Shown: piece after piece, positions 1 to 15,831 of the stretch
Numbering within the stretch: position 1 is the first letter of the stretch
How the letters are laid out: each line of letters opens with the position of its first letter
DNA from: a virus
DNA: 16,551 nucleotides
Direction: 5' to 3' (one strand)
Virus genome (UHGV): UHGV-0128496
Notes under the pieces: model-generated
The model's database searches: none
What the model saw: only the letters and a program-made list of their open reading frames with translations
Told to the model about the DNA's origin: nothing
Position numbers and translations under genes: made by a program

Positions 1-4
1 TAAA

Positions 5-25
5 GCGTGGTGTTGCCCTCCACGC
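5..25 (-). terminator. Possible weak terminator hairpin downstream of int (GCGTGG-N9-CCACGC)
   Basis: Inverted repeat gcgtgg (5-10) / ccacgc (20-25), 24 nt past the int stop; on the minus-strand RNA the hairpin is followed only by UUUA, so any U-tract is short. Confidence 0.25.
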
Positions 26-49
26 AGTTAACATGTCGGGTATGTTGGG

Positions 50-1363
50 TTAACTGACTGATTTTAATAGTCCTATGCTGTTTGTTTGTGGCCTATGGGG
101 CATCAATGGGGCAAAGTCGCCCAGCTTCTGATTCAGCATTGCGATCTGCTCTGCGTTATTGTCTGCCATCCATGCGCCGTACACATTGAAAACCATCTGC
201 GCGCTAGCGTGCCCCATCTGACTGGCTATAAAGCTTGGATTGGCGCCGGCGGCGAGTGACCAGCACGCGTAAGTGTGGCGCGACTGGTAAGCTTTTCGAT
301 GCCTGATCCCCGCCTTTTTTAGCCCTGCGTCCCATGAGTCACCAAACGAATCCACCTTGTAGATAATCCCCACATCCTTACTTCGACGGACTATCTTAGG
401 GTTAAAGACAAATGTACACCGGTGCTTCGCCGTTCTACCATACTCACGCAATTGCACGTTGATGTGATGCTGTTGCCCGAGTCTGGTCATTTCCATCTGA
501 TTCCTTAAAACATCGATGGCTGGCTGAATGAGGTGTATCACTCTATCCGTACTGGCGTCAGTTTTCGGTAGTGTGAACTCGCCCAGCTTTGTATAATTGC
601 GGCGAATTGTTATTGTACCTGCCTCAAGGTCGATATCTTCCCATGCCAGGGAAACCAGCTCCCCGTGACGAACACCTGTGTACACCGCCAGTGACCACAT
701 GTTTTTCGTCTGCTGATGCCGGCATGCATCTATCAGACGGATGAACTCATCACGACTGAGCGGGTCTGGCTCTACCCTGGCTCTTTTTAATGGCTTTATT
801 CCATCAAAGGGATTTGCCTTTATGTACCCATTATCGGCGGCGAACTGGAACATTCCGGCGATAGTCGTCATGTAGTAATTGACGGTGACCGCGCTCCGGC
901 CCTTAACGGGGATCCTGCCCTTTACAGCGCACTGATAACCCATCAAAAGCTCTTTCCTGATATACAGCAACTCTTCTTTCTCAATCGCTGTCACCAGTCG
1001 GCTAGACCCGATCAGCGGTACAACAACAGCAACGACCGACTCGTACCGTTTGTGCGCGTTCGAGCTGATTTCCATCTTTTTCAGATCCAGCCACTTCTCT
1101 TCGAGTTCTTTCACTGTGATTTCTTTCTTTCCCAACCCAAAAATTTTAAGGTTAGGTGAATCTGGAAACCGTTCAGCATAATCAAAGCTTCCCGTGCGGA
1201 TGGCAAAGCATACCGACACCCGCAGTTCCCCGGCTATCTTTCTGTTCTTAGCGGTGTCAGGGACACCGAGGCTTTCCCTGACACGCTTACCTTTAAAATT
1301 AAACCAGATGCGTAAAGTGCCACCGTGGTTTTCGACGCCTGTTGGATATGTGACTTTATCCAT
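50..1363 (-). CDS. int: Phage tyrosine integrase (lambda-Int-like site-specific recombinase)
   Basis: 437-aa ORF with N-terminal arm-type DNA-binding region and C-terminal catalytic-core signature (R in TGVRHGEL, H-x-x-R in HRKAYQSRHTYACW, GHASAQMVFNVYGAW with tyrosine). GGAGG RBS 5 nt upstream of the ATG at 1363. Terminal position and adjacency to xis are typical of a prophage end. Confidence 0.9.
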   Translation of the reverse strand: MDKVTYPTGVENHGGTLRIWFNFKGKRVRESLGVPDTAKNRKIAGELRVSVCFAIRTGSFDYAERFPDSPNLKIFGLGKKEITVKELEEKWLDLKKMEISSNAHKRYESVVAVVVPLIGSSRLVTAIEKEELLYIRKELLMGYQCAVKGRIPVKGRSAVTVNYYMTTIAGMFQFAADNGYIKANPFDGIKPLKRARVEPDPLSRDEFIRLIDACRHQQTKNMWSLAVYTGVRHGELVSLAWEDIDLEAGTITIRRNYTKLGEFTLPKTDASTDRVIHLIQPAIDVLRNQMEMTRLGQQHHINVQLREYGRTAKHRCTFVFNPKIVRRSKDVGIIYKVDSFGDSWDAGLKKAGIRHRKAYQSRHTYACWSLAAGANPSFIASQMGHASAQMVFNVYGAWMADNNAEQIAMLNQKLGDFAPLMPHRPQTNSIGLLKSVS

Positions 1364-1418
1364 TGATACCTCCAGACGCCCAAGAGCGATATGAGCTTAC
1401 CTTTTTCATGGCATCAAA

Positions 1419-1655
1419 TCACCCTGGCTGTTTGTTTTTCATTGAAGCCACCCAGGCATCGACCGCTTTACGGTTATACATGCATTCACTTGATGGCTTC
1501 GGGTTACCATCTGGTGAAACGTGGATATATTCCCGGCCAACCATCCAGCACTCTTTTCTGGCCCGGAGGATGGTACCGGGCTTGAGCCCGGTAACCGCGA
1601 TCAGAACGCTTTCACAAACCCAATCGTTGGGAGCTAACTGGAAAATATTGCTCAT
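1419..1655 (-). CDS. xis: Excisionase-like protein (Xis, DUF1233-type)
   Basis: 78-aa ORF immediately upstream of int on the same strand. The sequence MSNIFQLAPNDWVCESVLIAVTGLKPGT matches what I recall of enterobacterial prophage excisionase-like proteins. GGAGAAA RBS 6 nt before the ATG at 1655. Confidence 0.7.
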   Translation of the reverse strand: MSNIFQLAPNDWVCESVLIAVTGLKPGTILRARKECWMVGREYIHVSPDGNPKPSSECMYNRKAVDAWVASMKNKQPG

Positions 1656-1695
1656 AGTTATTTCTCCATTATCCCGGCTGCACCCGGGGAAAATT

Positions 1696-2274
1696 TTAGT
1701 TGTTGCTGGTGGTTGGGATTAGTTTCTGCCAAATCGCTGAAACATATTTCGCCTGGTGGCGGGCATCAGCCAGTGCGTTATGTGCAACCCCATCAAATGG
1801 CATATCACGCTTAGGATCGAAACCTACAACTCTGCCTAATGTGACGATGGTTCTGACGTCGTGATCATTCCAAAATTGCCACGGGCAAACCTGGCCGGCA
1901 CGCTCATATGCGCCGCGCAATATAACGTTGTCGAAAGTAGCTCCATTGCCCCAAACTTTTAAATATTTAGGGTTATCAGAATGCCGATTAATGAAATGGC
2001 TCAGTTCAGATAGGGCAGATGATATCGGCATCGCATCATCAACACAGATTGCTGATCGTGCTTCTGAGCTTTGTCTTAACCACCACAGAATAGTGTCACC
2101 GTCCGGCACCGCTCCCTGCTCCATAGCGCTTTCAAGGTTAACGGCGCTGTAAAACTCCTGACCCAGTTCACCGCTTTGCGGATCGAAGAACACGGCACCT
2201 ATGGAGACGATAGGGGCATTTGGTTTTTTGCCCATGGATTCGAGGTCGATCATTAAATTGTTCACGTTATACAT
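1696..2274 (-). CDS. DEDDh-family 3'-5' exonuclease (DnaQ-like)
   Basis: Exo motifs visible: LMIDLESMG (D-x-E), WGNGATFDNVIL, GVAHNALADARHQAKY (H-x4-D). I place the start at the internal ATG at 2274 (MYNVNN...), preceded directly by AGGAGA; the longer track ORF (to 2466) would overlap the upstream gene by 200 nt. Confidence 0.75.
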   Translation of the reverse strand: MYNVNNLMIDLESMGKKPNAPIVSIGAVFFDPQSGELGQEFYSAVNLESAMEQGAVPDGDTILWWLRQSSEARSAICVDDAMPISSALSELSHFINRHSDNPKYLKVWGNGATFDNVILRGAYERAGQVCPWQFWNDHDVRTIVTLGRVVGFDPKRDMPFDGVAHNALADARHQAKYVSAIWQKLIPTTSNN

Positions 2275-3049
2275 TCTCCTGCTGCGGTGCTGCTGCCTGC
2301 TCAGCTGCCATAGCTGCATCGATTTGCTCACGTAATTTGGTCGCGTGATAATCGTCATCTTCATCCGTGATGGTCTGCGACCAGAAAATGCTATGGCTTC
2401 CGTAAACCATAGGCTCACGAACATCAACGGTTTTAGATACCAGCCAGTCCATGCGGAGTACGTCATCCGGAGTTACCGGAGAGTTGCCAGCCTGGAGAAT
2501 AGATTTCAGCGCTGCCCTTGGCATTGCCGACCAGGCAAGGAATACGTCTGGCCTGTCGACATCTTCTGTCGGGAGAGTGTTTTCTATTTCGTCCAGCGCA
2601 TCACTTAGCTTCTGAAATGCGTCGTCTGGAACAACGTGGCACTCTTCGCCATCAACATCTTGCTGACAGCTATCATCTGCGAGTTCGAATGCGGCCCAGC
2701 AAACATTGAGCAGCATTTCAATAACGCGACGGTGTTCTGCTGTTACGCAATTCTCCGGCACTACCTGCGCTGGCGTGGCAGTGTAGAGCGGAATTACCGC
2801 ATCTCCCATTGGCTGAGACAGGCACTTAAGGTGAAGATCACCCATCTTTGCATAAGCCAGAGTTTCCTCAGCGGCATAAAGCACAGGCTCAGCATTCAGG
2901 ACTTCATCAATCACCTTCACAGCATCAGCCATTGCGTAGCCGAGATTACCGCCGTCGCTTTGTGCTGCTGCGTTGCTGAGTATTTCGCTTATCTGGTGCA
3001 GGCGATCGAGTGATACAGGACCGTGCGCCGGGTGGTTGTTAGTTGTCAT
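2267..3049 (-). CDS. Hypothetical acidic phage protein (260 aa), function unknown
   Basis: Long ORF in the coupled early-left operon; AGGGAGGA RBS 7 nt upstream of the ATG at 3049. Asp/Glu-rich with cysteine clusters; no motif I can assign. Confidence 0.6.
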   Translation of the reverse strand: MTTNNHPAHGPVSLDRLHQISEILSNAAAQSDGGNLGYAMADAVKVIDEVLNAEPVLYAAEETLAYAKMGDLHLKCLSQPMGDAVIPLYTATPAQVVPENCVTAEHRRVIEMLLNVCWAAFELADDSCQQDVDGEECHVVPDDAFQKLSDALDEIENTLPTEDVDRPDVFLAWSAMPRAALKSILQAGNSPVTPDDVLRMDWLVSKTVDVREPMVYGSHSIFWSQTITDEDDDYHATKLREQIDAAMAAEQAAAPQQENV

Positions 3050-3052
3050 GGG

Positions 3053-3271
3053 TTAGTCCTCCCTGTACGGATTTAATTTGTTGTGCAGTTTGTTAAATGG
3101 CCCCCATACGATGGAGCTATACCACTCAGCTATCTTTTCTGCCTGTTCTCCTGCTAACCAGATGAGGACTATCGGTGATATTGGAATCATTAAAATAAGA
3201 AAGAGAAGGAAAAATAGAGCCTCTTTAACACGGCTTTGGCGCGGATAATTCTTCAGGAATATTTTGGTCAC
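3053..3271 (-). CDS. Small hydrophobic (membrane) protein, 72 aa
   Basis: GTG start overlapping the stop of the upstream HNH gene (GTGA). Strongly hydrophobic central segment ALFFLLFLILMIPISPIVLIWLA suggests one transmembrane helix. Confidence 0.45.
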   Translation of the reverse strand: MTKIFLKNYPRQSRVKEALFFLLFLILMIPISPIVLIWLAGEQAEKIAEWYSSIVWGPFNKLHNKLNPYRED

Positions 3272-3645
3272 AAGTTATCCCCCTCTTGATACCGCTCGAA
3301 CCAGAACACAACTGGTGCGTTAGTCTGTTTAACCAGGCCAAATGATTCCGCTGTGCGGTAACTTCTTGACGCACGGCGAGTTACATCAACCTGAGTGGCT
3401 ATGCGGCTGCGAAAGTCTTCTACTGTGCTGCACATTTTGAACAAGTTGCATGGAATGCATGCTGGAACCATGTTGCTGACCGTGTCATTTTCTGGCCTGT
3501 CCATTGCGTAGCCGTTGCTGATATTTCTTCGTACCGCTTCTACATGGTCTGCATGCCACTTATCGCCAAGTTCACAGCCGCAATAAGCACAGCGACCGCC
3601 AAACTTCATGCGCAGTTCTGCACGCTGTTTTTTCGTCAGTGCCAT
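3268..3645 (-). CDS. HNH endonuclease
   Basis: CAYCGC ... WHADHVEAV ... N ... VPACIPCN: HNH core (His-Asp-His, Asn) flanked by two CxxC zinc ligand pairs. Start lies 1 nt from the upstream gene's stop. Confidence 0.75.
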   Translation of the reverse strand: MALTKKQRAELRMKFGGRCAYCGCELGDKWHADHVEAVRRNISNGYAMDRPENDTVSNMVPACIPCNLFKMCSTVEDFRSRIATQVDVTRRASRSYRTAESFGLVKQTNAPVVFWFERYQEGDNL

Positions 3646-3646
3646 C

Positions 3647-4204
3647 TCATTCCCCCTTCACGCCAATGCCAGCGGCGGCACGTTCGGCTTCACTTTGTTC
3701 CCAAAACCACTTGTGAAGCGCCATAAGCTCTTCGTCAATCGGTGCATATTTGCGGTCAAAGTAGGCCTGAGCATCTTTCTCAGATTCGTCAGGCAATTCA
3801 CCAGGCCCAAACAGCGTGTTATAAATCCATGACAGCCCGTTCTTAGCGTCACCAGTTGCCTGCCATTCGATAATCGCAGCTTGCATGACCAGAATGTTCT
3901 TCCCGATTAACAGGTCCAGTTCTTTGTGTCGGTTGCAGATATATGCATTCTCTCTCTGTAATTCAGCATTGCGCTTCTCTGCGGCTTCCAGCTCATCCAG
4001 CAGCGCCAGTACGGTGGGCGGGTTGGCGGCGGCGATGAATGCCGAATCAACTTTAAGGCAGTGTTGAGCTACCGCCTTTGCACCAACTTTTACTTCATAT
4101 CCTCTCGCGCCTTTGTGTGGCTTATACGACTCCCATTTACCCCATGAAGCTATGTTTGCGGCATTGTCCGCTTCACGCAACGCCTGTTTGTTGAGTGCTT
4201 TCAT
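3647..4204 (-). CDS. Ead/Ea22-like early-region protein (hypothetical)
   Basis: 185-aa ORF with N-terminal MKALNKQALREADNAA and a coiled-coil-like middle, resembling what I recall of Ead/Ea22-like prophage proteins. Its ATG overlaps the upstream stop (ATGA). Confidence 0.5.
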   Translation of the reverse strand: MKALNKQALREADNAANIASWGKWESYKPHKGARGYEVKVGAKAVAQHCLKVDSAFIAAANPPTVLALLDELEAAEKRNAELQRENAYICNRHKELDLLIGKNILVMQAAIIEWQATGDAKNGLSWIYNTLFGPGELPDESEKDAQAYFDRKYAPIDEELMALHKWFWEQSEAERAAAGIGVKGE

Positions 4205-4455
4205 TGGGCTGCTCCCTGTCTGGCGCTATTCAATAGCTGGTTAAACATCATGGTTAGGCTGTTACTGCACCCAAACGGCATATCGTTAACACGGTATGTT
4301 GGAATGCCCTTGCGAACACCAGACTTCACGATCCGGCCTGTGCCATAGAGTTGCGATAATGCTCCGGCGACCGCTGGCGTCGTTTTGTTCATGCCTTTGG
4401 CGATTTCACCGCTGGTGGTATTTGGATGAGCCTGGAGATATTCAAATACGGTCAT
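4201..4455 (-). CDS. Small DNA-binding (winged-helix-like) protein, 84 aa
   Basis: ORF coupled on both sides by ATGA overlaps. The segment TTSGEIAKGMNKTTPAVAGALSQLYGTGRIVK looks like an HTH recognition unit. Confidence 0.5.
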   Translation of the reverse strand: MTVFEYLQAHPNTTSGEIAKGMNKTTPAVAGALSQLYGTGRIVKSGVRKGIPTYRVNDMPFGCSNSLTMMFNQLLNSARQGAAQ

Positions 4456-4619
4456 GGCGTTTTACCTTTACGTTCCTGTTCCAGTTGCACCAGAGACTCT
4501 TTTAATGCTGCGAACGTAGCTTCTAGTCTGGTGGCGACTTCGCGCATAAGCGGTGCATGCTTTGGTGGCAATTCAGCAACGGAGGCAAACGCCTCCGCTA
4601 CGAGTTCTTTTACCTTCAT
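4452..4619 (-). CDS. Unannotated small ORF (55 aa) coupled between the HD and wHTH genes
   Basis: Hand translation gives MKVKELVAEAFASVAELPPKHAPLMREVATRLEATFAALKESLVQLEQERKGKTP. It is below the 60-aa cutoff of the ORF track. Its ATG overlaps the HD gene stop (ATGA) and its TGA overlaps the ATG of the next gene. Confidence 0.4.
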   Translation of the reverse strand: MKVKELVAEAFASVAELPPKHAPLMREVATRLEATFAALKESLVQLEQERKGKTP

Positions 4620-5155
4620 GCGGCGCATTGGCGCTGCTCCATCAATTCGTTAAAGCGATTGATGAACATGCCGTATGACTGGCCAGGACGAACTGGATTG
4701 ATAATGAATAAATCCGTTGGGACAACTCCCTCGAGGCATGGCCACACGGAACCTTCGTCAACCTCAAAATCGCGGCGTTCGCTGGCGAGCATCACCAGAT
4801 CGGCATATTTCACAGTTGGGTGTTGTTCCGTCGGTAGGCCGAACTTCTGCCGAATGGCTGCATCCACGCGAGCTTCGATCACCTGGTAATCCGGAAGCAG
4901 GTGCTTAAGCGGGGATGGGATGTCCTGCAGGTAGGCTTCAGCAGCATCATGAAGCAGTGCTTCTAATGCAAACTCCTGCGGAACGAGGTGGCTGGTTAAA
5001 ACGCTATGCTGGCCGACGCTATAAAACTCAGGAAGATGCCCTGCAAAACGGCAGATATGAGACAACGCGGTAGCAATATCCTCGATCACGATATCGTCCT
5101 GTTGGATATCGAGGTAATTAAAATGTTTGCCGGATAATGTCTGAATGTAGCTCAT
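4616..5155 (-). CDS. HD-domain phosphohydrolase (YfbR-like 5'-deoxynucleotidase family)
   Basis: H...HD metal-binding signature (QHSVLTSHL ... LLHDAAEAY). I place the start at the ATG at 5155 (MSYIQTL...), preceded by GGAGAAAA; the track ORF begins at a GTG at 5182 with no SD. Confidence 0.7.
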   Translation of the reverse strand: MSYIQTLSGKHFNYLDIQQDDIVIEDIATALSHICRFAGHLPEFYSVGQHSVLTSHLVPQEFALEALLHDAAEAYLQDIPSPLKHLLPDYQVIEARVDAAIRQKFGLPTEQHPTVKYADLVMLASERRDFEVDEGSVWPCLEGVVPTDLFIINPVRPGQSYGMFINRFNELMEQRQCAA

Positions 5156-5262
5156 GGTTTTCTCCATATTGGCGCGCTGCACCGCGCTATTAAATTAATG
5201 AATTGCTAAATTTAGCGTGCAGCAACCCAACCCATGACATGGGTTAATTACGGTCTGGGGTA

Positions 5263-6180
5263 TTAGGCTGCGGGTTTTTGTGGCTGTTCTTCTTTGTACG
5301 AAAGAAGATCACACATCAGGTTTACTACTTTGCTGAATTGGATTAGATCCGTCCCGGCCTGATGGCGCCATTGAAATGCTTTATCATCTTCATCGTTGAA
5401 TGTTTGGGCTTGGGTATTGATGCGCGAAAAATGGAAATTTTCGGTGAGGATGAACGATACACCGCATCCTGCTAGCTCCATTTTATCAGCGGTAAAGCCG
5501 CTATTAAGGCTATCAACTAGCTCGCTTTGAATTGAGTCGTGTTCAGCTGAGTAGCGAATAACTTCATTTTGATCGGCAAGGCGGGACAGCTGGATATAAT
5601 TGCCGACGGTAAACCCTTCAAAAGCATTGGCCACGCCATTGATATAGTTTTTCAACCGCGTAGTTAAACCGTTCTTAATATCGCTAATGTTGATTGTTTC
5701 TGTTTTAACGGAACCGACAACTTTCACCAGCATAGCCACAGCCATACCGGCAATATTTTTATTGGTCGTATTGACCACTAATAGCTTTTCGTTGGTGCTG
5801 TACAACGCAAGGATCAGCGTTGATTTAACAAATGCCCGTTTACACAGGTCAACGCGGACGCTGTCGATAATTGCTAATCGTTCGATACGTTTGATTTTAC
5901 TCCCGGACATATCTTCGATTCTTTGGATCCGTGCTGCGGCTTCCTTCAAAACAACATGCTGGGGAATGATTTTCTGATCATGGCGGATCACGATGGCATA
6001 CCCACCTGATATTGGGGTGACCAATTCGCCAGTGATCGGGTTTGGCACAAAAGAGGCGCGTGAAAACTCAGTTTCACCAATCTCGGAGTAGGGGAGTTCA
6101 AGCAGATGCCCCTCGATAGCTTCAATGCTAGGTAGTGTGGCGCGGTACACGATTGCGTTACGGAACTTAGGTAATTTCAT
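5263..6180 (-). CDS. rdgC: RdgC-like recombination-associated protein
   Basis: 305-aa ORF whose length and sequence pattern (N-terminal FRNAIVYR, central hydrophobic core, C-terminal acidic tail) match my memory of E. coli RdgC (about 303 aa). AGAGGAAAG RBS 5 nt upstream of the ATG at 6180. Confidence 0.65.
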   Translation of the reverse strand: MKLPKFRNAIVYRATLPSIEAIEGHLLELPYSEIGETEFSRASFVPNPITGELVTPISGGYAIVIRHDQKIIPQHVVLKEAAARIQRIEDMSGSKIKRIERLAIIDSVRVDLCKRAFVKSTLILALYSTNEKLLVVNTTNKNIAGMAVAMLVKVVGSVKTETINISDIKNGLTTRLKNYINGVANAFEGFTVGNYIQLSRLADQNEVIRYSAEHDSIQSELVDSLNSGFTADKMELAGCGVSFILTENFHFSRINTQAQTFNDEDDKAFQWRHQAGTDLIQFSKVVNLMCDLLSYKEEQPQKPAA

Positions 6181-6513
6181 TTAACTTTCCTCTGCACAAG
6201 GTTTTAGTCCATACACGAAGTTAAGGCGGCTGCCACCGCCGAACTTTCTCCATACACAACAGAGAAGGGCACCTGCATTAGTCGGCGGCTTGAGAGACCG
6301 CTTTCTTTTTGCCCGGGTGGATTGGGTTATGAGCCCGTCGCCCGGTGATGCCCTTTTCTGTTGTGCCCTGAAAAAGGCTGGCGGTTACCGGAAATACACG
6401 GGAAAACACCGGGCCGCCAGAACAGGGAGTTACTTGTTATTGCTTTAGCCTGCTTTTAACCACATCAGGCGCGGTGGTATCTTGGTGTTCTCACACAACC
6501 AAGAGGGATGTTT

Positions 6514-6711
6514 ATGGGCGCTTTTGATAACCAGGAAATTACGTTACCCGCATGCCCTAAGTGCGGCACTAAGACGAAGAAGAAAATCGCTTGGCTCAAG
6601 TCGAACAAAAGTTTCACTTGTCGATGTGGAGCTACTATCAATGTCAACAGCAGCCAGCTTACTTCCGAAATCAGGAAGGTTGAGGACAAGCTGAAGAAGC
6701 TCTTTAAATAG
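6514..6711 (+). CDS. Small Cys4 zinc-ribbon protein (about 65 aa), lysine-rich
   Basis: CPKCG-x15-CRCG zinc-ribbon signature. AGAGGGA RBS about 6 nt before the ATG at 6514; an intrinsic terminator follows the stop. It lies antisense to the 3' half of the minus-strand ORF 6544..6910. Confidence 0.45.
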   Translation: MGAFDNQEITLPACPKCGTKTKKKIAWLKSNKSFTCRCGATINVNSSQLTSEIRKVEDKLKKLFK

Positions 6712-6910
6712 TTTTTTATCGACTGATATTATTTCGTTATCAGAGGTTGGTTTTTCAGCCTCTGATTTTTTAGTCAGGATCATTTTTTCTACACATGTGA
6801 CTACGCATTCCGAACAGATGGCAGGTTCGTCCTTACCACCTTTTGCGACGATCTTTATCGCTCCCAGTTCGGTTGCTCCGCAAAATGAGCATGTGAATAA
6901 ATGATTCATG
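6544..6910 (-). CDS. ClpX-type C4 zinc-finger domain protein (N-position early gene)
   Basis: N-terminus MNHLFTCSFCGATELGAIKIVAKGGKDEPAICSECVVTCVEKMI aligns by eye with the ClpX N-terminal zinc-binding domain (CSFCG ... IC-x-EC-V-x-x-C). ATG at 6910 with GGTAGAGG RBS. It is the first ORF downstream of the PL-like promoter. The C-terminal about 55 codons are antisense to the plus-strand zinc-ribbon ORF. Confidence 0.45.
6739..6772 (+). terminator. Rho-independent terminator after the zinc-ribbon ORF
   Basis: Stem atcagagg (6739-6746) / cctctgat (6759-6766) with a 12-nt loop, followed by TTTTT(T). It is not a terminator in the minus orientation because no U-tract follows there. Confidence 0.5.
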
Positions 6911-7018
6911 TAAACCTCTACCCCCAACCTAAGTTTTCTGTCAGCGAATCATCCGGTTATTCATATGCCACCGGCGGCTACTTCGTGGGCGTCCTGCCTG
7001 TTCGCTTTCGATGCAATG

Positions 7019-7048
7019 ACTATAGCTACTTTAAGTAGATAATTGCAA
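7019..7048 (-). promoter_or_regulatory. PL-like leftward early promoter with embedded operator
   Basis: On the minus strand: -35 TTGCAA (7043-7048), 18-bp spacer, -10 TATAGT (complement of 7019-7024). The spacer contains the inverted repeat CTACT-TTA-AGTAG (7026-7038), the same motif found in the cI-cro intergenic region. Degenerate AGTAG half-sites lie at 7057-7061 and 7076-7080. Confidence 0.4.
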
Positions 7049-7110
7049 CAACAAAAAGTAGAAAATGAAATTTTTAGTAGTGTAGTGTTATGAGGTGAGG
7101 AATTGGAGGC

Positions 7111-7140
7111 GTAAAAAAAACCGGCTTTCGCCGGTTTCTT
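7111..7140 (-). terminator. Rho-independent terminator ending the cI transcript
   Basis: Stem CCGGC (7121-7125) / GCCGG (7130-7134) with TTTC loop, flanked by A8 on the plus strand. On the minus strand this reads hairpin plus U8, 14 nt past the cI stop. It is much weaker in the plus orientation (TTTCTT). Confidence 0.6.
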
Positions 7141-7153
7141 GATGAATTAATTA

Positions 7154-7873
7154 TTAGCCAAACTCTATCATTTTTAGAGGTAAGCATCTGATTAGCTTGC
7201 CGAATATGTATAGTTCATTCATTTCATGCTCCTCTATGAAGAAGGGCGGGTAATGTTCATTGTCTGAAAGAACTGCCAGTCGGCGCCCTTTTACCTTCTG
7301 CAAACGTTTAACGAACGTACTGTCTTCAAAATTGAACACATAAACGCCGTCGCCGCTGAATTGTTCAACCTTGCTGTCTATGAAAAGCAGGTCCTTTGGG
7401 CAAAGCGTGGGCATCATGCTATCGCCATCAACATTTATCATGACGATGCCATCAAGGCTTCTACGACCAAACAACTCGAAGATCCTCTCTTCTGGAATCT
7501 CTATTGAGCTCACTATTGTAGGGAATGGTTGGTTTATATATCCGGAACCGGCTGAAGCATGAACATCCAATTGCTCTATTCTGACCGTGCCTTTGGCTGG
7601 CGCGTCGCCACCATTAACAGGCACACCATAATCAAGATAAGCCGGTGAGACGGCAAGTCTTTCTGCAATTCGAATCATCTTCTCATCTCTCGGCTTTGCA
7701 GTACCAAGAGTGTAGCGCCGCGCCATCTCATACGAGACACCACTGAACTCTGACAATTCTTTAACTCCAATAGATTGCTCTTGGAGAGACCTGTTTAGCC
7801 TTTCGGCAAAGTCTTTGTATTTAGCATTTTCCACCATAAGTAGAAGATTAAGCGCACAAGGCATAGTTGTCAT
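7154..7873 (-). CDS. cI: CI-like prophage repressor (N-terminal HTH, C-terminal S24 LexA-type peptidase)
   Basis: HTH segment VKELSEFSGVSYEMARRY; S24 self-cleavage signature VDGDSMMPT (Ser) and FVKRL (Lys). Coordinates are the maximal ORF. The in-frame ATG at 7837 (MVENAKYKDF...) is the more likely start: a PRM-like promoter (-35 ATGACA, complement of 7868-7873; 17-bp spacer; -10 TAATCT, complement of 7845-7850) would place the transcript start at that ATG, giving a leaderless mRNA as for lambda cI. Confidence 0.85.
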   Translation of the reverse strand: MTTMPCALNLLLMVENAKYKDFAERLNRSLQEQSIGVKELSEFSGVSYEMARRYTLGTAKPRDEKMIRIAERLAVSPAYLDYGVPVNGGDAPAKGTVRIEQLDVHASAGSGYINQPFPTIVSSIEIPEERIFELFGRRSLDGIVMINVDGDSMMPTLCPKDLLFIDSKVEQFSGDGVYVFNFEDSTFVKRLQKVKGRRLAVLSDNEHYPPFFIEEHEMNELYIFGKLIRCLPLKMIEFG

Positions 7874-7914
7874 TTCTATTTTAAGTTGCTAATAATTGCT
7901 ACTATAAGTAGTAT
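7831..7914. promoter_or_regulatory. Immunity-region operators with divergent PRM/PR promoters
   Basis: Three inverted-repeat sites of type CTACT-N3-AGTAG: perfect CTACT-ATA-AGTAG (7899-7911), degenerate CTATT-TTA-AGTTG (7876-7888) and CCACC-ATA-AGTAG (7831-7843). PR candidate: -35 TTGCTA (7886-7891), 17-bp spacer, -10 TAGTAT (7909-7914), upstream of the cro RBS AGGAGA (7933-7938). The operators overlap the -35 and -10 elements of both promoters. Confidence 0.45.
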
Positions 7915-7942
7915 TGATGCAGGCTTAGTCATAGGAGAACAC

Positions 7943-8200
7943 ATGTCATCTCAACACAAGAATGTAACAGCTAAAGCTGTGAAGGCGATCGGGTCGATTT
8001 CAGAGGTATCAAGGCGGTTTGAATTCCAATCAGTTCAATCTGTTGCGAACTGGATTGCAAAGAACCGAGTACCTTCTGAAAGAGTTATTCAACTCTGCCA
8101 ATGGGGCGGATGGGTAGTAACTCCCCATCAATTACGACCTGATATTTATCCGAACAAAAATGACGGCATACCTTCCGCTAACAACAATAGTCAACTTTAA
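7943..8200 (+). CDS. cro: Cro-like HTH regulator (YdaS-like)
   Basis: First rightward gene, divergent from cI. AGGAGA RBS 5 nt before the ATG at 7943. The segment AIGSISEVSRRFEFQSVQSVANWIAKNRVP is HTH-like. The track ORF begins at an upstream start with no SD. Confidence 0.6.
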   Translation: MSSQHKNVTAKAVKAIGSISEVSRRFEFQSVQSVANWIAKNRVPSERVIQLCQWGGWVVTPHQLRPDIYPNKNDGIPSANNNSQL

Positions 8201-8231
8201 GTTGATTATTAACTACCAGAGGGAAATCAAC

Positions 8232-8795
8232 ATGGTAGACAGCATAAATACAGCAATCCGCCTGATGTGTAAGGCACACAAGCATGGTCGCTTAGGTATG
8301 GCTTCCGATTTAGGGATGACTATCGACCAGTTCCACAACCACCTGTACCAGAAGTGTGGCAGTCGGTTCTTTACCTTGGCAGAACTGGAACGGATGGAGG
8401 ACCTGTCTGGTTCTTGTTACTTGGCCGAGTACCAGGCGAACCGAAAAGGGAAATGGCTGGTGGATGTTCCAACTGCTGAGAGCCTGGATAACGTTGAGCT
8501 GTACAGCATTGAGATGAAAGCGGCAGCAGCATCTGGTGAGCTGGCTAATGCCAAGATGGCAGCAGCGGCTGATGGGGTAATTGATTCATCAGAGCGCAAA
8601 ACGCTTTCAGAATTATTCAGTAAGAAGCTCCGCCACCAGATTCACGGGTTCCTGGGATTTATGGCGCTTTATGGGGTTGGTGTTTCAGATCAGGCGATTG
8701 ACGTATTCGTTTCAACAGGCAGAAAAGGTGACGCCCGCGAGTGTGCAGCTCCGGGCGCCTTGGCGTGTCGTATCAGTGGAGAAACTAACGCATGA
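8232..8795 (+). CDS. cII-position early protein (possibly YdaT-like), function unknown
   Basis: ORF directly after cro with AGAGGGAAA RBS 7 nt before the ATG at 8232. Its position matches ydaS-ydaT of Rac-like prophages, but I cannot confirm sequence similarity from memory. Confidence 0.45.
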   Translation: MVDSINTAIRLMCKAHKHGRLGMASDLGMTIDQFHNHLYQKCGSRFFTLAELERMEDLSGSCYLAEYQANRKGKWLVDVPTAESLDNVELYSIEMKAAAASGELANAKMAAAADGVIDSSERKTLSELFSKKLRHQIHGFLGFMALYGVGVSDQAIDVFVSTGRKGDARECAAPGALACRISGETNA

Positions 8796-9130
8796 ACAGT
8801 GTAAACCGATTCAGACCAGCTAAGCAATTCAGATGTTTGCCGCTGGTGGGTAAAGATGCCCAGTTCGGCTATGTGGAAATCATAAATAACGCGGCTGATG
8901 GAGGCAACTACCAGCCAGCAGACTTGATGGTAGAAGCATTTGTTCAGATGAACGAGAAGGGGCGCGAGGAATGGCTGAAGTTAACCGGCGGTTCAGAGAT
9001 CACTACGGAGTTCCCGTCAGAGTTGTCCGCTGGGAGCCAGATACACAGCGCGTTATATACCTTCGCGAAGGGTACGATCATGAGTGCTTCAGCCCTCTTG
9101 AACAATTCCAGCGTAAATTTACAGAATTAA
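8792..9130 (+). CDS. Hypothetical early protein (112 aa)
   Basis: Its ATG overlaps the upstream stop (ATGA), so it is coupled within the early-right operon. No recognisable motif. Confidence 0.5.
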   Translation: MNSVNRFRPAKQFRCLPLVGKDAQFGYVEIINNAADGGNYQPADLMVEAFVQMNEKGREEWLKLTGGSEITTEFPSELSAGSQIHSALYTFAKGTIMSASALLNNSSVNLQN

Positions 9131-9139
9131 AGGACGACC

Positions 9140-9994
9140 ATGAGCACTAAATTAACCGGTTACGTATGGGATGCATGCGCTTCGTCAGGCATGAAGTTAT
9201 CCAGCGTTGCCATCATGGCGCGTCTGGCAGACTTCAGCAGTGATGAAGGGGTTAGCTGGCCTTCCATCGCTACCATCGCGCGCCAGATTGGTGCTGGTGA
9301 GAGCACGGTTCGTACAGCCATATCTCAGCTGGAAAAAGATGGTTGGTTAACCCGCCAGCAGCGCCGTAAAGGCAACCGAAATGCATCGAACGTTTACCAG
9401 CTCAATGTTGCGAAATTGCAGGCTGCTGCCTTTTCTCACCTGTCAGATTCTGACGCATCAAAATCTGATGCCTCAAAAACAGACGCGTCAAAATCTGAGG
9501 CATCAAAAAACGATGAAAAAGGCGGTTTTCACCCGTCAGAATCTGGGGGGGATCCGTCAGTAAATACAACTACTGATCCATCAGTTAAAAAACCTTCTTG
9601 TCCGGTTGCGCCGCAACCAGACCCTGAAGTGATGATCACCGATAACGCCATCCTGGTTCTGAATCATCTGAACCTGGTTAGTGGCTCACGATACCAAAAA
9701 TCAAAAACTTCTCTGGAAAACATCCGTGCTCGTCTGCGTGAAGGTTACACCGTTAGCGACTTACAGCTGGTGATCGACCTTAAGCATGAGCACTGGAACG
9801 GCAATGACGTGCAGTACCAGTACATGCGTCCTGAAACGCTCTTCGGTCCGAAAAAATTTGAAGGTTATCTGCAAAGCGGGATCCGCTGGGACAAGAAGGG
9901 GCGGCCACCGCGTGACAGCTGGGGTGAAAAGAAACATGACCCGATGAAGTTCGGTCCGGTTGATAGCAAGATTCCAGAGGGGTTCAGAGGATGA
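9140..9994 (+). CDS. Replication initiation protein (lambda-O-like; N-terminal winged HTH, conserved phage C-terminal domain)
   Basis: N-terminus VAIMARLADFSSDEGVSWPSIATIARQIGAGESTVRTAISQLEKDGWL is typical of HTH_36-type initiators. A low-complexity linker (DASKS x4) precedes a conserved C-terminal domain (VLNHLNLVSGSRYQ ... LFGPKKFEGYLQ). The position after the cro/cII module matches a replication gene. Confidence 0.7.
   Translation: MSTKLTGYVWDACASSGMKLSSVAIMARLADFSSDEGVSWPSIATIARQIGAGESTVRTAISQLEKDGWLTRQQRRKGNRNASNVYQLNVAKLQAAAFSHLSDSDASKSDASKTDASKSEASKNDEKGGFHPSESGGDPSVNTTTDPSVKKPSCPVAPQPDPEVMITDNAILVLNHLNLVSGSRYQKSKTSLENIRARLREGYTVSDLQLVIDLKHEHWNGNDVQYQYMRPETLFGPKKFEGYLQSGIRWDKKGRPPRDSWGEKKHDPMKFGPVDSKIPEGFRG
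9452..9511 (+). repeat. Four tandem 15-bp iteron-like repeats inside the initiator gene (putative origin)
   Basis: gacgcatcaaaatct / gatgcctcaaaaaca / gacgcgtcaaaatct / gaggcatcaaaaaac, with partial copies on both sides. Each has a near-palindromic GAYGCRTC core and an A-tract. Lambda ori likewise lies as iterons inside the O gene. Confidence 0.45.
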
Positions 9995-11325
9995 TGGAAA
10001 ATAAATACTGCCGTGCACTGGCTGAACTCCGTTCAAAACCAGCACACGAGTTGAAAGAGGTCGGTGATCAATGGCGCACTCCGGATCTGTTGTTTTGGGG
10101 GATCAATGCGATGTTCGGCCCTCTGGTGTTGGACCTTTTTGCCGACGACAGCAACGCGAAGTGCCCAGCATGGTACACGGCTGAAGATAATGCCCTGACG
10201 CAGGATTGGTCAGAGCGGCTGGCAGAACTCGGTGGTGCCGGGTTTGGCAACCCGCCTTACAGCCGCTCTCAGTACCACGACAAGCAGGCCGTTACCGGAA
10301 TGACCCACATCATTAACCACGCTATGGCCATGCGAGAAAAGGGTGGTCGGTACGTTTTTCTCATTAAGTCTGCGACGAGTGAAACGTGGTGGCCGGAAGA
10401 GGCAGATCACGTCACATTCATCCGTGGCCGAATTGGTTTCGATCTTCCTACATGGTTCGTGCCGAAAGACGAAAAGCAGCAGCCCACCAGCGCATTTTTT
10501 GCTGGCGCTATCGTGGTCTTCGACAAAACATGGCGGGGTGAGCGTTTCAGTTACATCAACCGCACCGACCTGGAGGCCAAAGGCCGTGCTGCGATGTCGC
10601 TGGCCCAATTTGCCGTGGGAAGAACGCAAACTGATGCGGCGCCAGAGCTGGACGCTGAGGTAGTGCCGAAGAAATCAGAGGCAGAACTGCCATTAACCCA
10701 AAAAGCCATTCTGGAAACCAGCGGTGTAGAGGCTTGGGCCTGTGTTGTCGCGGCGTTCGGCGAGAAAGACGAGTACACCTTCAGCGAGTCAAAGTTTGGT
10801 CATACCTGGGCTGCCGACTCTCTGGAAAACCCTGAATTTACCAATGTTTCACCGCTGACGATCGACAGAGCGAAAAAGCTGATCAGCGAGAGCATCCTGG
10901 TGGGTGTTAATGCATGGCTGGAAACATTGCCCTTTGATAGCGATGACGTGAAACAAGACATGTCAGAGCGGTTACGCACGGTTGCCGTTGAGTCTGCGAA
11001 AGAATACGGCATTAACCACAGTGAATTCATCGCGACCATGGAAAGCCTGGATAAAGCCAAATGGTCAAATATTCGGGGGATCCGCGCCCATGTCCGTGAG
11101 ACGCAGGAATCAAAGGACAAGGCGTTAAACGAATCGCGCGTTTGGCCTCTTGAGGTTGGACTGGTGTTTAACCAGATTGAAGGGGCTGACGCTCTACCTG
11201 TTTCGCAGCAGAACAAGCTGAAAGCCAATATCAACCAGCTGTGGCTCGAACGTATGCCGACGAGTGAAATTATCACGACCGCTGGTGGTCTCTTCAACAG
11301 CATGCAGGGGGCCGTCAATGCGTGA
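9991..11325 (+). CDS. Phage Dam-family N6-adenine DNA methyltransferase with about 240-aa C-terminal extension
   Basis: N-terminal about 200 aa carry WRTPD and the catalytic FGNPPYS (NPPY) motif of phage Dam-type N6A MTases. Its ATG overlaps the initiator stop (ATGATG). Residues about 205-444 have no motif I recognise. Confidence 0.8.
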   Translation: MMENKYCRALAELRSKPAHELKEVGDQWRTPDLLFWGINAMFGPLVLDLFADDSNAKCPAWYTAEDNALTQDWSERLAELGGAGFGNPPYSRSQYHDKQAVTGMTHIINHAMAMREKGGRYVFLIKSATSETWWPEEADHVTFIRGRIGFDLPTWFVPKDEKQQPTSAFFAGAIVVFDKTWRGERFSYINRTDLEAKGRAAMSLAQFAVGRTQTDAAPELDAEVVPKKSEAELPLTQKAILETSGVEAWACVVAAFGEKDEYTFSESKFGHTWAADSLENPEFTNVSPLTIDRAKKLISESILVGVNAWLETLPFDSDDVKQDMSERLRTVAVESAKEYGINHSEFIATMESLDKAKWSNIRGIRAHVRETQESKDKALNESRVWPLEVGLVFNQIEGADALPVSQQNKLKANINQLWLERMPTSEIITTAGGLFNSMQGAVNA

Positions 11326-13255
11326 AATTATCGTTGATAACTTTGCTGGTGGCGGCGGCGCGAGTACCGGCATTGAACTGGCGATCGGGCGTAGCGTGGA
11401 TATCGCTATCAACCACGACGAAAACGCTATTGCGATGCATAAGACGAATCACCCTGACACGCTGCATTATTGCGAGTCGGTGTTTGACGTTGACCCAAGC
11501 GCAGCCACCAGCGGTAAACCTGTCGGTCTGGCCTGGTTTAGCCCTGACTGCCGCCACTTTTCCAAGGCGAAGGGCGCTAAGCCGGTTAAGAAAGAGATTC
11601 GCGGGCTGGCGTGGATTGTCCTGCGCTGGGCGCTGGCAGTACGTCCCCGCGTCATGATGCTGGAGAACGTCGAAGAGTTTAAGACATGGGGCCCGCTGCT
11701 GGATGAAGAATTACGCCCGGATCCTGAGCGTGCTGGCGAAACATTCGAGGCATTTGTCGGCATGCTGTCGACGGGGATCGCGGCGAATCACCCTGCGCTG
11801 GCTGAGGTTTGTGAATTCCTTGCCATTGAGCCGCACGGCCAGCAGGCGCAACAGCTGATCGCCGGGCTTGGTTATGAGGTTGATTATCGGGAGCTGCGCG
11901 CATGTGACTACGGCGCGCCGACGATCAGAAAGCGTTTCTTCATGGTCATGCGCTGTGACGGCCGCAAGATTCATTGGCCTGAAGCGACTCATGGGGATCC
12001 AAAATCACTGGAAGTACAAAGCGGCAAGCTGGCGCCATGGCGTACCGCGGCGGAGTGCATTGACTGGAATATCCCGGCCCGGTCCATCTTCGACCGCAAA
12101 AAGCCGCTGGCGGAAAATACGCTCAAACGTATCGCGCGCGGCATCCAGCGCTTTGTTATCGAAAGCGCATCACCTTTCATCGTGAAGTGTAACCACACCA
12201 CGACGAAAGGAGGTTATGACTGTTTCCGCGGGCAATCGTTGTTAGAGCCATTGCAGACCATCACTAAAAAGCATGGCTACGCACTGGCGGTACCGCATCT
12301 TACTAAATTCCGCACCGGGGCCACCGGGCAGCCAGTGACCGAGCCGGTACCAACTGTCACCGCTGGTACGTCGGCGCGCCCGGGCGGGAATGGGCATGCG
12401 CTTGGCGTAGTTGAGGCCGCCCTGACACCGTTCCTGGCTGGCAATGGCGGCAGTGAGTACCAGGCAAAGCCGCGCCCGCTGGATAAACCCGCTCATACAA
12501 TCCTCAAGCAGTCCCGCGCGTGCGTGGTTGCGCCGGTCATCGCCCGCCAGTTTGGAGCCAGTGTTGGGCACAGGGCTGACGAACCGAGTGCGACGATTAC
12601 TGCAGGTGGTGGCGGTAAGTCGCAGCTGGTAACTCCAACACTGATCCAGATGGGGTACGGCGAACGCCCAGGGCAAGAACCGCGTGTTCTTCAACTGAAT
12701 AACCCGCTCGGCACGGTCACTGCTGGTGGTAATAAGTTTGCAACGGTGAGCGCGTTCCTGGCGAAGCACTATGGTGGGAATTACACGGGGCCGGGTGTTG
12801 GTATGGATGAGCCTGCCCACTCAGTCACTACTGTTGATCACCACGCGGTAGTTGCGTCGCACCTGGTGAAGCTGCGCGGAACCTGCCGCGACGGTCAGAC
12901 CATGGATACACCTATGCCGACGATTACCGCTGGTGGCCAGCACGTTGGCGAGGTCCGGACATTCCTCGAAACCTACTGCGGTGATAGCGAGGATGAATGG
13001 CTGGTGACGATCGAGGGGGTTAAGTACCAGATCGTCGATATCGGAATGCGCATGCTGCAACCGCATGAGCTTTATAAGGCGCAGGGCTTCCCTGACGGCT
13101 ACGTTATCGATCAGGACTATCGCGGCAATCGTTACGCCAAAGACAAGCAGGTAGCGCGCTGTGGTAACGCAGTACCGCCGCCGTTCGCTCGTGCGCTGGT
13201 AGAAGCAAATCTTCCTGAATTATGTGCAAATCAAAAGGCGGGTGCAGCCGCCTGA
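11318..13255 (+). CDS. DNA cytosine-5 methyltransferase (large, repeat-containing variable region)
   Basis: Motif I FAGGGGAS, an ENV motif (MLENVEEF) and C-terminal CGNAVPPP; the Cys motif reads SPDCRHFS rather than canonical PCQ. Start taken at the ATG at 11318 (MREIIVDNFAGGGG), overlapping the Dam stop; the track ORF extends upstream in the same frame. The region between the catalytic and C-terminal motifs holds about five P-x-x-T-[VI]-T-A-G-G repeats. Confidence 0.8.
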   Translation: MREIIVDNFAGGGGASTGIELAIGRSVDIAINHDENAIAMHKTNHPDTLHYCESVFDVDPSAATSGKPVGLAWFSPDCRHFSKAKGAKPVKKEIRGLAWIVLRWALAVRPRVMMLENVEEFKTWGPLLDEELRPDPERAGETFEAFVGMLSTGIAANHPALAEVCEFLAIEPHGQQAQQLIAGLGYEVDYRELRACDYGAPTIRKRFFMVMRCDGRKIHWPEATHGDPKSLEVQSGKLAPWRTAAECIDWNIPARSIFDRKKPLAENTLKRIARGIQRFVIESASPFIVKCNHTTTKGGYDCFRGQSLLEPLQTITKKHGYALAVPHLTKFRTGATGQPVTEPVPTVTAGTSARPGGNGHALGVVEAALTPFLAGNGGSEYQAKPRPLDKPAHTILKQSRACVVAPVIARQFGASVGHRADEPSATITAGGGGKSQLVTPTLIQMGYGERPGQEPRVLQLNNPLGTVTAGGNKFATVSAFLAKHYGGNYTGPGVGMDEPAHSVTTVDHHAVVASHLVKLRGTCRDGQTMDTPMPTITAGGQHVGEVRTFLETYCGDSEDEWLVTIEGVKYQIVDIGMRMLQPHELYKAQGFPDGYVIDQDYRGNRYAKDKQVARCGNAVPPPFARALVEANLPELCANQKAGAAA

Positions 13256-13269
13256 TATGGAGAAATAGC

Positions 13270-13962
13270 ATGAATCAGTTAACCGCTAAGGGTGTTGTGA
13301 CAATGTCCAGCCGTGAAATTGCCAGGCTGGTGCAGAGCAAACATGGTGATGTGAAGCGCTCAGCTGAGCGCCTTGCATCTGCTGGTATTTTAACCGCGCC
13401 GTTGGCGCACACCCCCTACACACACCCGCAAAACGGGCAAACCTACGAGGAGTATTGGTTTAACAAACGTGATTCTCTGGTGATCGTCGCCAGGCTGTCG
13501 CCAGAATTTACCGCCGCTGTTGTCGATCGCTGGCAAGAGCTGGAGAACAGCCAGGCCGTAAGTGTCCCGCAAACATTGCCGGAGGCATTACGTCTCGCCG
13601 CGGATCTGGCCGAGCAGAAAGAACAACTCAGCCAGCAGTTAGCCGCTGCCGCGCCGAAAGTTGAGTTTGTCGATCGATATTGTACTGCCAAAGGCTCAAT
13701 GTCTTTCCGCCAGGTGGCAAAGCTGTTGCAGGCCAAAGAGACCGATTTCCGCTTGTTCCTCATTGAGAGCGGCATTTTGTACCGGCTCAGTGGAGTGCTG
13801 ACACCTCGGCACCAGCACATTGCTGCCGGGCGGTTTGAAGTGAAAACTGGCACTACGAGCGAAACAAACTACGCCTTTAGCCAGGCACGTTTTACACCCA
13901 AAGGCATCGAGTGGATCGGCGGCCTGTGGACGGCACACATCGCTAAGGGGCATGCCGCGTGA
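13270..13962 (+). CDS. Rha-family regulator / antirepressor (Rha N-terminal domain plus KilA-C/ANT-like C-terminus)
   Basis: N-terminus MSSREIARLVQSKHGDVKRSAERL resembles the Rha domain; C-terminal EALRLAADLAEQKEQL ... KVEFVDRY resembles ANT/KilA-C. GGAGAAA RBS 5 nt before the ATG at 13270. Confidence 0.65.
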   Translation: MNQLTAKGVVTMSSREIARLVQSKHGDVKRSAERLASAGILTAPLAHTPYTHPQNGQTYEEYWFNKRDSLVIVARLSPEFTAAVVDRWQELENSQAVSVPQTLPEALRLAADLAEQKEQLSQQLAAAAPKVEFVDRYCTAKGSMSFRQVAKLLQAKETDFRLFLIESGILYRLSGVLTPRHQHIAAGRFEVKTGTTSETNYAFSQARFTPKGIEWIGGLWTAHIAKGHAA

Positions 13963-15020: not shown

Positions 15021-15041
15021 TTGTATGGAGCGCTGAGCATA

Positions 15042-15734: not shown

Positions 15735-15792
15735 GGTAACTTTCACTAACTCCCTCAAATGGGCTTGCAAAATGCAACAAAATGAGCCATAT

Positions 15793-15821: not shown

Positions 15822-15831
15822 TATATCTAAC

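Follow-up and report, generated by a model that had tools for sequence, protein, structure and literature searches.

A probable lambda-like immunity switch on 13-bp palindromic operators, with a predicted leaderless repressor transcript, in a prophage region shared with Escherichia coli Nissle 1917

The window studied here is a stretch of 16,551 nucleotides from the virus genome UHGV-0128496, and it is the early region of a lambdoid prophage. Its immunity region is likely a lambda-like switch, a reading that we hold with good confidence. A LexA-like repressor and a divergent Cro of the YdaS type would act on one family of operators, CTACTT-N-AAGTAG, and the repressor mRNA from the maintenance promoter (PRM) would be leaderless. 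Only the repressor gene, at 7154-7873 on the minus strand by its longest open reading frame (ORF), separates the left operator (OL) from the right operator (OR), which are 873 bp apart. This kind of switch is itself well known. We found no description of its operator code, which is unusually well conserved in relatives of many genera.

An initial annotation of this DNA had reported a perfect 13-bp inverted repeat, CTACT-N3-AGTAG, at 7026-7038 and 7899-7911. Direct reading of the sequence confirmed both copies, and the coordinates of that annotation were all correct. The same exact sequence, CTACTNNNAGTAG, occurs twice in the window, at these two places. The two exact matches to the pattern compare with an expectation of 0.01, and none of 200 shuffles reached two. 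Allowing at most two mismatches, we found seven matches in 16.5 kb, compared with 3.35 expected. Five of the seven lie in the intergenic DNA on either side of the repressor gene. The two stretches amount to about 165 bp, and by arithmetic from the whole-window rate only about 0.03 matches would be expected in them.

Three sites form OR. OR1 (7899-7911, CTACTATAAGTAG) is a perfect match to the 5-3-5 pattern. OR2 (7876-7888, CTATTTTAAGTTG, or CAACTTAAAATAG on the minus strand) has two mismatches and ends 2 bp before the -35 box of PRM. OR3 (7831-7843, CCACCATAAGTAG, or CTACTTATGGTGG on the minus strand) also has two mismatches. It is centred on the ATG at 7837, which appears as CAT at 7835-7837. 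OR2 and OR3 are the degenerate copies already pointed out in the initial annotation, and they are real.

At OL, the site OL1 (7026-7038, CTACTTTAAGTAG) is a perfect palindrome, CTACTT-T-AAGTAG, in the spacer of the leftward promoter (PL). The motif AGTAG had also been listed at 7057-7061 and 7076-7080, as half-sites. Both positions are right. The first is not a bare half-site, since it is the right arm of OL2 (7049-7061, CAACAAAAAGTAG), a full site with two mismatches to the 5-3-5 pattern that adjoins the PL -35 box. The second belongs to a weak possible OL3 (7068-7080), where only the AGTAG arm is good and the mismatches total four. The spacing is equal at both operators, with 23 bp between OL1 and OL2 and 23 bp between OR1 and OR2.

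We collected repressor homologs of 45-100% identity and took their DNA from one-genome-per-species bacteria, viral contigs and metagenomes. The related loci belong to Enterobacterales and a small number of other proteobacteria. The genome and viral collections gave 98 loci with 63 distinct OR regions, which were stacked without gaps. The sites and their significance, the conserved positions, the promoter blocks, the protein domains and the link of the motif to the repressor and Cro were computed on these data and on the window.

The OR regions share one ungapped layout: OR1, 10 nt, OR2, AA, ATGACn, 17 nt, TAnnnT, T and OR3. Relative to the long ATG of the repressor ORF (7873), the sites lie at offsets -38 (OR1), -15 (OR2) and +30 (OR3). 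OR1 is found at its offset in 57 of the 63 distinct relatives, mostly with no mismatch or one. OR2 and OR3 are at theirs in all 63. The deviations of OR2 from the consensus are themselves conserved, and an ATG is invariant inside OR3. The left part of the consensus of the 63 regions reads AT(A/G), OR1 as CTACTTAAAGTAG, 10 variable nucleotides, OR2 as C(A/T)ACTTAAAATAG, and AA. The right part reads ATGACn, 17 hypervariable nucleotides, TAnnnT, T, and OR3 as CTACyTATGGT(A/G)G. According to the site tables, positions C1, A3, C4, T11 and G13 of the operator are 100% conserved in all three OR sites.

OL shows the same regularity. Almost all relatives of at least 59% identity have two sites 23 bp apart just beyond the repressor stop codon. 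The equivalent of OL1 is present in nearly all of them, and OL2 is conserved as CTACTTTTTGT(T/A)G. A degenerate third site, 19-22 bp beyond OL2, exists in some relatives only (loci L002, L003 and L089). Judged from these alignments, the operator code is better written as a 13-bp palindrome with 6-bp arms, CTACTT-N-AAGTAG (6-1-6). The comparison supports the prediction that the fixed-offset sites behave as operators.

More distant loci were also seen. In L032-L059 (Haemophilus, Aggregatibacter and Acinetobacter), L202, L207 and L208, the repressors are 26-44% identical to the one in the window. They keep the order OR2, -35 box, 17 nt, -10 box and OR3, with CTAC...GTAG arms. Their -35 box begins with TTG (TTT in L208). 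In some Acinetobacter loci, the leaderless-start position within OR3 is occupied by ATG, TTG or GTG.

A palindrome could be conserved at a fixed place and still not belong to the repressor. The sites might be bound only by Cro or another factor, or they might be chance AT-rich repeats. The one observation in favour is that the sites are always accompanied by both Cro and the repressor N-domain. Every operator-bearing locus in this comparison has homologs of both. The Cro homolog is 58-100% identical in all of these loci; it is divergent from the repressor and about 70 nt from its long ATG in all but one. Binding by the repressor is not distinguishable from binding by Cro on the conserved sites, because the two proteins always occur together. 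We count this as a point against our interpretation.

The remaining evidence goes the other way. Chance is excluded by the shuffles, and positional coincidence by the relatives. The sites also accompany relatives that keep only the N-domain of the repressor and have a different C-domain. They are absent beside repressors with other recognition helices. The initial annotation had suggested searching for the motif in heteroimmune relatives. Repressors that are 34-38% identical, with different recognition helices, have other palindromes (ATAAC-N4-GTTAT, ATAGC-N4-GCTAT and GCAAT-N4-ATTGC), and CTACT/AGTAG is absent beside them. Finally, the way in which the sites are laid out over PR, PRM and PL matches every lambdoid switch studied, and in all of those cI and Cro share their operators. 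Shared operators on PR, PRM and PL were also described with a YdaS-type Cro in the prophage CP-933P (PMC8630535). We regard the idea that the palindromes are not repressor operators as extremely improbable.

The operator motif, then, tracks this repressor/Cro type, because other repressor types carry other palindromes and a Cro homolog is found at every locus with the sites. To this extent, the claim that the repeats define the probable operator specificity is supported. Nevertheless, the code is 6-1-6, and it is common to a very broad repressor family instead of being the private immunity of one phage.

Some relatives are short. Proteins P0089-P0120, of 143-171 amino acids (loci L021, L023, L024, L028, L029, L036 and L039), retain the repressor's N-domain, and their loci have the same operators at OR and OL. 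Their S24 domain is replaced by a C-terminal domain with the motif EKRLLRxFRxFP...NMLLAFE. Such short repressors could not be induced by RecA-driven self-cleavage.

The promoters fit the sites closely. PL (7019-7048, minus strand) has the -35 box TTGCAA (7048-7043), an 18-bp spacer and the -10 box TATAGT (7024-7019), and it scores 9/12 in the promoter scan. Its geometry is common to the relatives: the -35 box, often a perfect TTGACA, directly follows OL2, OL1 occupies the spacer, and the -10 box directly follows OL1. This conserved pair around OL1 bears out the earlier statement that OL1 lies inside the PL spacer.

The rightward promoter (PR, 7886-7914, plus strand) was read by eye. It consists of the -35 box TTGCTA (7886-7891), which overlaps OR2, a 17-bp spacer and the -10 box TAGTAT (7909-7914), which overlaps OR1. 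The overlap of OR1 with the PR -10 box had been proposed before, and the conservation of TAGTAT agrees with it. Two features are conserved in the relatives, namely a TTG on the border of OR2 and the ATA triplet beside OR1 (A 97%, T 98%). This pair matches the consensus at 8/12, under the threshold of the scan. Counting against it, the best plus-strand consensus match in the scan is another pair, TTGTCA (7867-7872) with an 18-bp spacer and AATAAT (7891-7896), at 10/12. A promoter of this kind would start near 7903, with OR2 in its spacer and OR1 on its start site. The complement of the conserved ATGACnA is TnGTCA in nearly all relatives, which also favours it. However, its -10 box would sit in the 10-nt gap between OR1 and OR2, which varies in the relatives and often contains no usable hexamer. 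By contrast, the TTG inside or beside OR2 and the (T/C)AT flank of OR1 are both conserved. In PL, which has the same site geometry, the -35 box adjoins OL2 and the -10 box adjoins OL1. These comparisons support TTGCTA-17-TAGTAT as the predicted PR, and we keep the scan's pair as an unlikely rival. Whichever pair is used, OR1 and OR2 cover the core of PR.

PRM (7845-7873, minus strand) has the -35 box ATGACA (7873-7868), a 17-bp spacer and the -10 box TAATCT (7850-7845). Seven nucleotides separate this -10 box from the ATG at 7837, and the predicted transcript start is the A of this codon. The initial annotation had proposed such a PRM-like promoter with a leaderless repressor start, and four observations support it. 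First, the conserved letters of the blocks are those on which a sigma-70 promoter depends: TGAC in the -35 box and, in the -10 box, the opening TA and the closing T. Positions 3-5 of the -10 box (TAnnnT) and position 6 of the -35 box vary freely. Second, the spacer has a fixed length. We compared 54 distinct stretches of the ATGACn type, from the -35 box to OR3, drawn from 136 loci with those from metagenomes included. The spacer is saturated with substitutions yet measures 17 nt in all 54, and the distance from TAnnnT to the ATG is likewise kept in all of them.

Third, distant relatives have a promoter at the same position. Relatives in Haemophilus, Aggregatibacter and Acinetobacter show TTGAAT or TTGGTG, a 17-nt spacer and TAnnnT, for example TTGAAT-17-TATCTT. 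Two distant lineages were checked (TTGAAT in L202/L207 and TTTACG in L208). In them, a consensus-like OR3 is followed by a stop codon, AAGGAG and the repressor ATG. The blocks at the PRM position are plainly non-coding promoter elements in these two lineages. Fourth, methionine 13 of the long form (M13, the ATG at 7837) is invariant in the protein alignment, although its G weakens the right arm of OR3.

There is no Shine-Dalgarno sequence (nothing like GGAG) upstream of the ATG at 7837 or of the ATG at 7873. There are also precedents. In lambda, PRM yields a cI mRNA without a leader (PMC10491246). The CP-933P repressor paaR2, whose prophage has a YdaS-type Cro, is leaderless by 5' RACE and N-terminal sequencing (PMC8630535). 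The four promoter observations, the two ATGs without a Shine-Dalgarno sequence and these precedents support the leaderless reading. The prediction that the repressor mRNA from PRM is leaderless and starts on the ATG at 7837 is, for a comparison of sequences, well supported. A leaderless start at 7873 was also considered and rejected. The only -10-like hexamer there is TAAAAT, inside OR2, which ends 4 nt before the ATG, and the -35 box would be TATAGT.

Several observations weigh against the start at 7837 as the whole explanation. PRM matches the consensus at 8/12 and was not called by the promoter scan. All public annotations start the repressor at 7873, and the RefSeq protein has 239 amino acids (WP_032140310.1). 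The databases also hold long and short start calls for otherwise identical relatives, such as P0067/P0070 and P0076/P0077. The ATG at 7873 is the first three bases of the PRM -35 box and lies 36 nt upstream of the ATG at 7837. The two are in frame because the -35 box, the spacer, the -10 box and the last interval add up to 36 (6 + 17 + 6 + 7). The resulting upstream extension has 12 codons (7838-7873, minus strand, MTTMPCALNLLL), overlaps the PRM core promoter and begins at the start used in public annotation.

A lack of coding constraint upstream of the leaderless start codon is not what we found, as the frame is open and the ATG invariant. In the 54 distinct stretches, the 36 nt between the two ATGs contain no in-frame stop, compared with 25 and 21 stops in the other frames. 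We thinned the spacer sequences at six or more differences. Among the 26 well-separated sequences that were left, there were 0 in-frame stops and 13 and 10 in the other frames. A permutation null that preserves the composition of each column expected 3.5 interrupted sequences of 23 (P = 0.013). Moreover, the A of ATGACn is invariant in 54 of 54 stretches, though the consensus base is T and position 6 varies freely. T occupies the first base of the -35 box in two relatives with a Shine-Dalgarno-led start. We also saw an apparent excess of cysteine codons in the extension. It was dismissed, as it is not confined to one frame: the sequences concerned number 9 in frame 0, 4 in frame 1 and 6 in frame 2.

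A non-coding promoter needs neither an open frame nor an invariant A. We conclude that translation across the promoter in the frame of ATG 7873 appears to be under selection. Leaderless translation from 7837 is probably not the sole route to the repressor protein. A longer isoform, made from leadered transcripts, is plausible and would be the simplest account of the open frame.

Could the repressor be made only as the 239-aa protein, from ATG 7873 on a leadered transcript? In this case, the PRM-like blocks would be coding sequence. The never-interrupted frame, the invariant ATG of ATGACn and the start used in public annotation all speak for it. Against it, the extension is hypervariable in sequence but constant in length, as suits a promoter spacer rather than a peptide. 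In the alignment, the long form begins with 'MT', six hypervariable residues and 'NLLL', and then comes M13. The conserved letters are exactly those of the -35 box (TGAC) and the -10 box (TA...T). Distant relatives keep these blocks as non-coding sequence before a stop and a Shine-Dalgarno sequence. The ATG of M13 is invariant at the cost of a weaker OR3. The ATG at 7873 lacks a Shine-Dalgarno sequence, and a consensus promoter scan found no promoter upstream of it. Residues 1-14 of the long form are disordered in the structure model. A repressor made only in the long form is thus very unlikely.

Our tentative proposal, which is quite possible without being the favoured outcome, is that the gene has two nested starts. 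The leaderless mRNA from PRM would give a protein of 227 amino acids from 7837, and leadered transcripts would be translated from 7873. Such transcripts might arise further upstream, for instance at a PRE-type (repressor establishment) promoter activated by cII. On them, the ATG at 7837 would be poorly used. A Shine-Dalgarno sequence is missing there, as its place is taken by OR3 and the -10 box. The longer product would carry 12 extra residues of irrelevant sequence, in a frame set purely by the geometry of the promoter. The two-start proposal accounts for the invariant A of ATGACn, for the frame that never closes and for the Shine-Dalgarno-led start in the TTGAAT and TTTACG lineages. Other relatives of the TTG type have no ATG in OR3.

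The 227-aa form (7154-7837, minus strand, MVENAKYKDF...) has a helix-turn-helix (HTH) N-domain and an S24 autocleavage C-domain. Pfam reports HTH_3 (E 5e-5) and Peptidase_S24 (E 3.5e-17). In the structure model, the N-domain has five helices and its recognition helix is YEMARRYTL at 48-56, in long-form numbering. The Ser/Lys dyad, S152 and K189, is invariant in the alignment, and the Ala-Gly linker site A108-G109 is nearly so. A Foldseek search matched the model to LexA C-domains (target TM-scores near 0.8), lambda cI, 186 CI and UmuD'. It was the fold search alone that gave matches: phmmer against PDB sequences had none at E up to 0.01. The S24 domain, the residues S152/K189 and A108-G109, and the LexA-like fold of the model make RecA-dependent self-cleavage and SOS induction likely.

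We infer as follows who binds what and in which order, the activation from OR2, the exact transcript starts and the cleavage. The repressor and Cro are expected to bind the same family of 13-bp palindromes. Repressor dimers would fill OR1 and OR2, and OL1 and OL2, cooperatively, as pairs 23 bp apart. On OR1 and OR2, over the -10 and -35 boxes of PR, the repressor would shut off cro and the rightward operon. On OL1, in the PL spacer, and OL2, which abuts the PL -35 box, it would shut off the leftward operon. Repressor bound at OR2 probably stimulates the weak PRM, with its -35 box ATGACA. Transcription from the A of ATG 7837 would then give the leaderless mRNA and the 227-aa protein. OR3, the weakest site, lies on the PRM start and could shut PRM off at high repressor level. 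Looping to OL, 873 bp away, might help this repression. Cro would use the same sites to shut PRM. Upon SOS activation, RecA would trigger cleavage at the Ala-Gly site and prophage induction.

Two points temper this scheme. OR2 is centred at -45 from the PRM start, compared with -42 in lambda, and its role in activation is uncertain. In addition, the searchable literature returned no binding, footprint or transcript-start data for this repressor.

The comparison with lambda shows many likenesses. Both have a divergent cI/cro pair. In both, a single palindrome family supplies the three sites of OR and the several sites of OL, and adjacent sites are about 23 bp apart. The strongest site is nearest PR and PL, the weakest is on PRM, and a weak PRM lies beside OR2. 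Both have a leaderless cI mRNA (predicted here) and an HTH plus S24 repressor with an Ala-Gly cleavage site (putative here). On the other hand, lambda operators are 17 bp long instead of 13 bp. Here OR3 coincides with the PRM start point and the start codon, at 45 bp from OR2, and does not lie over the -35 and -10 boxes. OL is only about 870 bp from OR here, and the interval holds the repressor gene alone. The Cro of this locus is a YdaS-family protein, and its cII a member of the CP76/YmfL family. Unlike lambda, which has a stop codon directly upstream of the cI ATG, the locus in the window has an in-frame ATG inside the PRM -35 box.

The textbook comparison with phage 434 is also useful. Its operators have 14 bp, ACAA-N6-TTGT, with the outer 4-5 bases strictly conserved and an AT-rich, variable centre. 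Both systems have HTH dimers and short operators, but the sequences bear no relation to each other, and the repressors lack close homology.

The PaaR2/YdaS/YdaT system of CP-933P in E. coli O157:H7 is alike in its YdaS-family Cro analogue, its leaderless repressor mRNA (predicted in our case) and its PR, PRM and PL with shared operators (PMC8630535). In contrast, PaaR2 is a different protein without an S24 domain, its palindromic operators have 18 bp with the half-site GTTTAGTAA, and its cII analogue is YdaT and not a CP76/YmfL protein (PMC8630535). This cII analogue activates a PRE promoter (PMC8630535).

The closest sequenced phages with this repressor type are the Providencia phages PSTRCR_117lys and PSTCR8lys, whose repressors are 60-63% identical and whose hosts are different. 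Genome and viral loci of Providencia have the same OR and OL layout. Literature searches found no functional study of the switch of these two phages, nor of this repressor type. Six operator sequences were also sought in the literature. No paper with them appeared, and the only match was an unrelated human case report.

The neighbouring genes are those of a lambdoid early region. To the left are the integrase, the excisionase, rdgC, a small ClpX-type zinc-finger ORF (6544-6927, minus strand) and the repressor gene. To the right lie the cro-like gene, the cII-like gene, replication and methylase genes, and Q. The cro-like gene (7943-8200, plus strand) belongs to the YdaS family (Pfam PF15943, E 4.8e-9, above the curated cut-off; phrog_35), and its Shine-Dalgarno sequence is AGGAG at 7933-7937. 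The cII-like activator gene (8232-8795, plus strand) is of the CP76/YmfL family (Pfam PF06892; phrog_101) and is found in most relatives of the locus.

The repressor transcript would end at an intrinsic terminator (7113-7140, minus strand) between the repressor stop codon and OL. It combines an 11-bp stem with a GAAA loop and a T8 run. Its fold energy is -16 kcal/mol (z -4.4), and 0 of 200 shuffles were as good. A consensus terminator scan did not report it.

Another perfect palindrome, CAACTTTAAGTTG, lies at 8192-8204 and overlaps the cro stop codon. It has two mismatches to the operator. In the closest relatives it is kept at offset -331, even where the cII gene beyond it differs, and the relative L095 has the OL2-like CTACTTTTTGTTG at the equivalent position. 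It might serve as a fourth operator, or it might be the scar of a recombination.

The leader of the PL transcript contains a conserved structured RNA at 6931-7016 (core 6944-7005, minus strand), before the first leftward gene. Phages whose repressors are unrelated (ST64B, SfV, ZF40 and Flotzy) have it in the same position, in one copy per phage. Three helices compose it. Compensatory changes are seen in 4 of the 5 pairs of helix 3, where 97% of cells pair, compared with 23-45% in slid controls. Among 1,382 complete E. coli genomes with a hit, most match only at about 6940-7020, which contains this element. Rfam gave no match in the window at the gathering threshold, nor around PL at E up to 10.

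The put sites of phage HK022 were considered as homologs. There, put has two copies, putL after PL and putR after PR. We rejected this identity, as BLAST found no match in HK022 24.5-30 kb and only the position after PL fits. A covariance model of the element matched nothing in HK022 24.5-38 kb, and it did not reveal another copy in the window. The phage LLS, a close relative of this one, has no N protein (PMC12315714), which makes cis-acting antitermination attractive. By this analogy, the element may be a cis-acting antiterminator in N-less phages.

Positions 6293-9228 of the window are identical (100%) to a prophage of the probiotic E. coli Nissle 1917. The remainder (1-6292 and 9229-16551) is a mosaic, with only a few short blocks that match the Nissle 1917 prophage. 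The best overall matches to the window are E. coli MEI4O1-23 (85% of the window) and the phage record Phi06_2987 (62%). The latter is the closest phage record, and it is partial and unannotated. Most of the immunity region is present in only 33 of 5,426 complete E. coli genomes. The 'phage repressor pr' gene described in Nissle (EcN_1294; Bury et al. 2018, PMC5987069) is a different gene. We exclude it because neither the window nor the 17-kb Nissle locus contains any of its four primers.

The operator code CTACTT-N-AAGTAG and a promoter map are thus predicted, from sequence alone, for the uncharacterised immunity type of the Nissle 1917 prophage. The analysis suggests that the public 239-aa repressor annotation begins inside the repressor's own promoter. 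If the two-start idea is true, these phages would have a compact way, unlike that of lambda, to translate one repressor gene from leaderless and leadered mRNA. The same switch is seen in Citrobacter, Enterobacter, Pantoea, Yersinia, Serratia, Providencia, Proteus and Morganella, and its architecture can be recognised as far as Haemophilus and Acinetobacter. This taxonomic breadth allows cross-immunity predictions and offers ready-made parts for engineering or curing these prophages.

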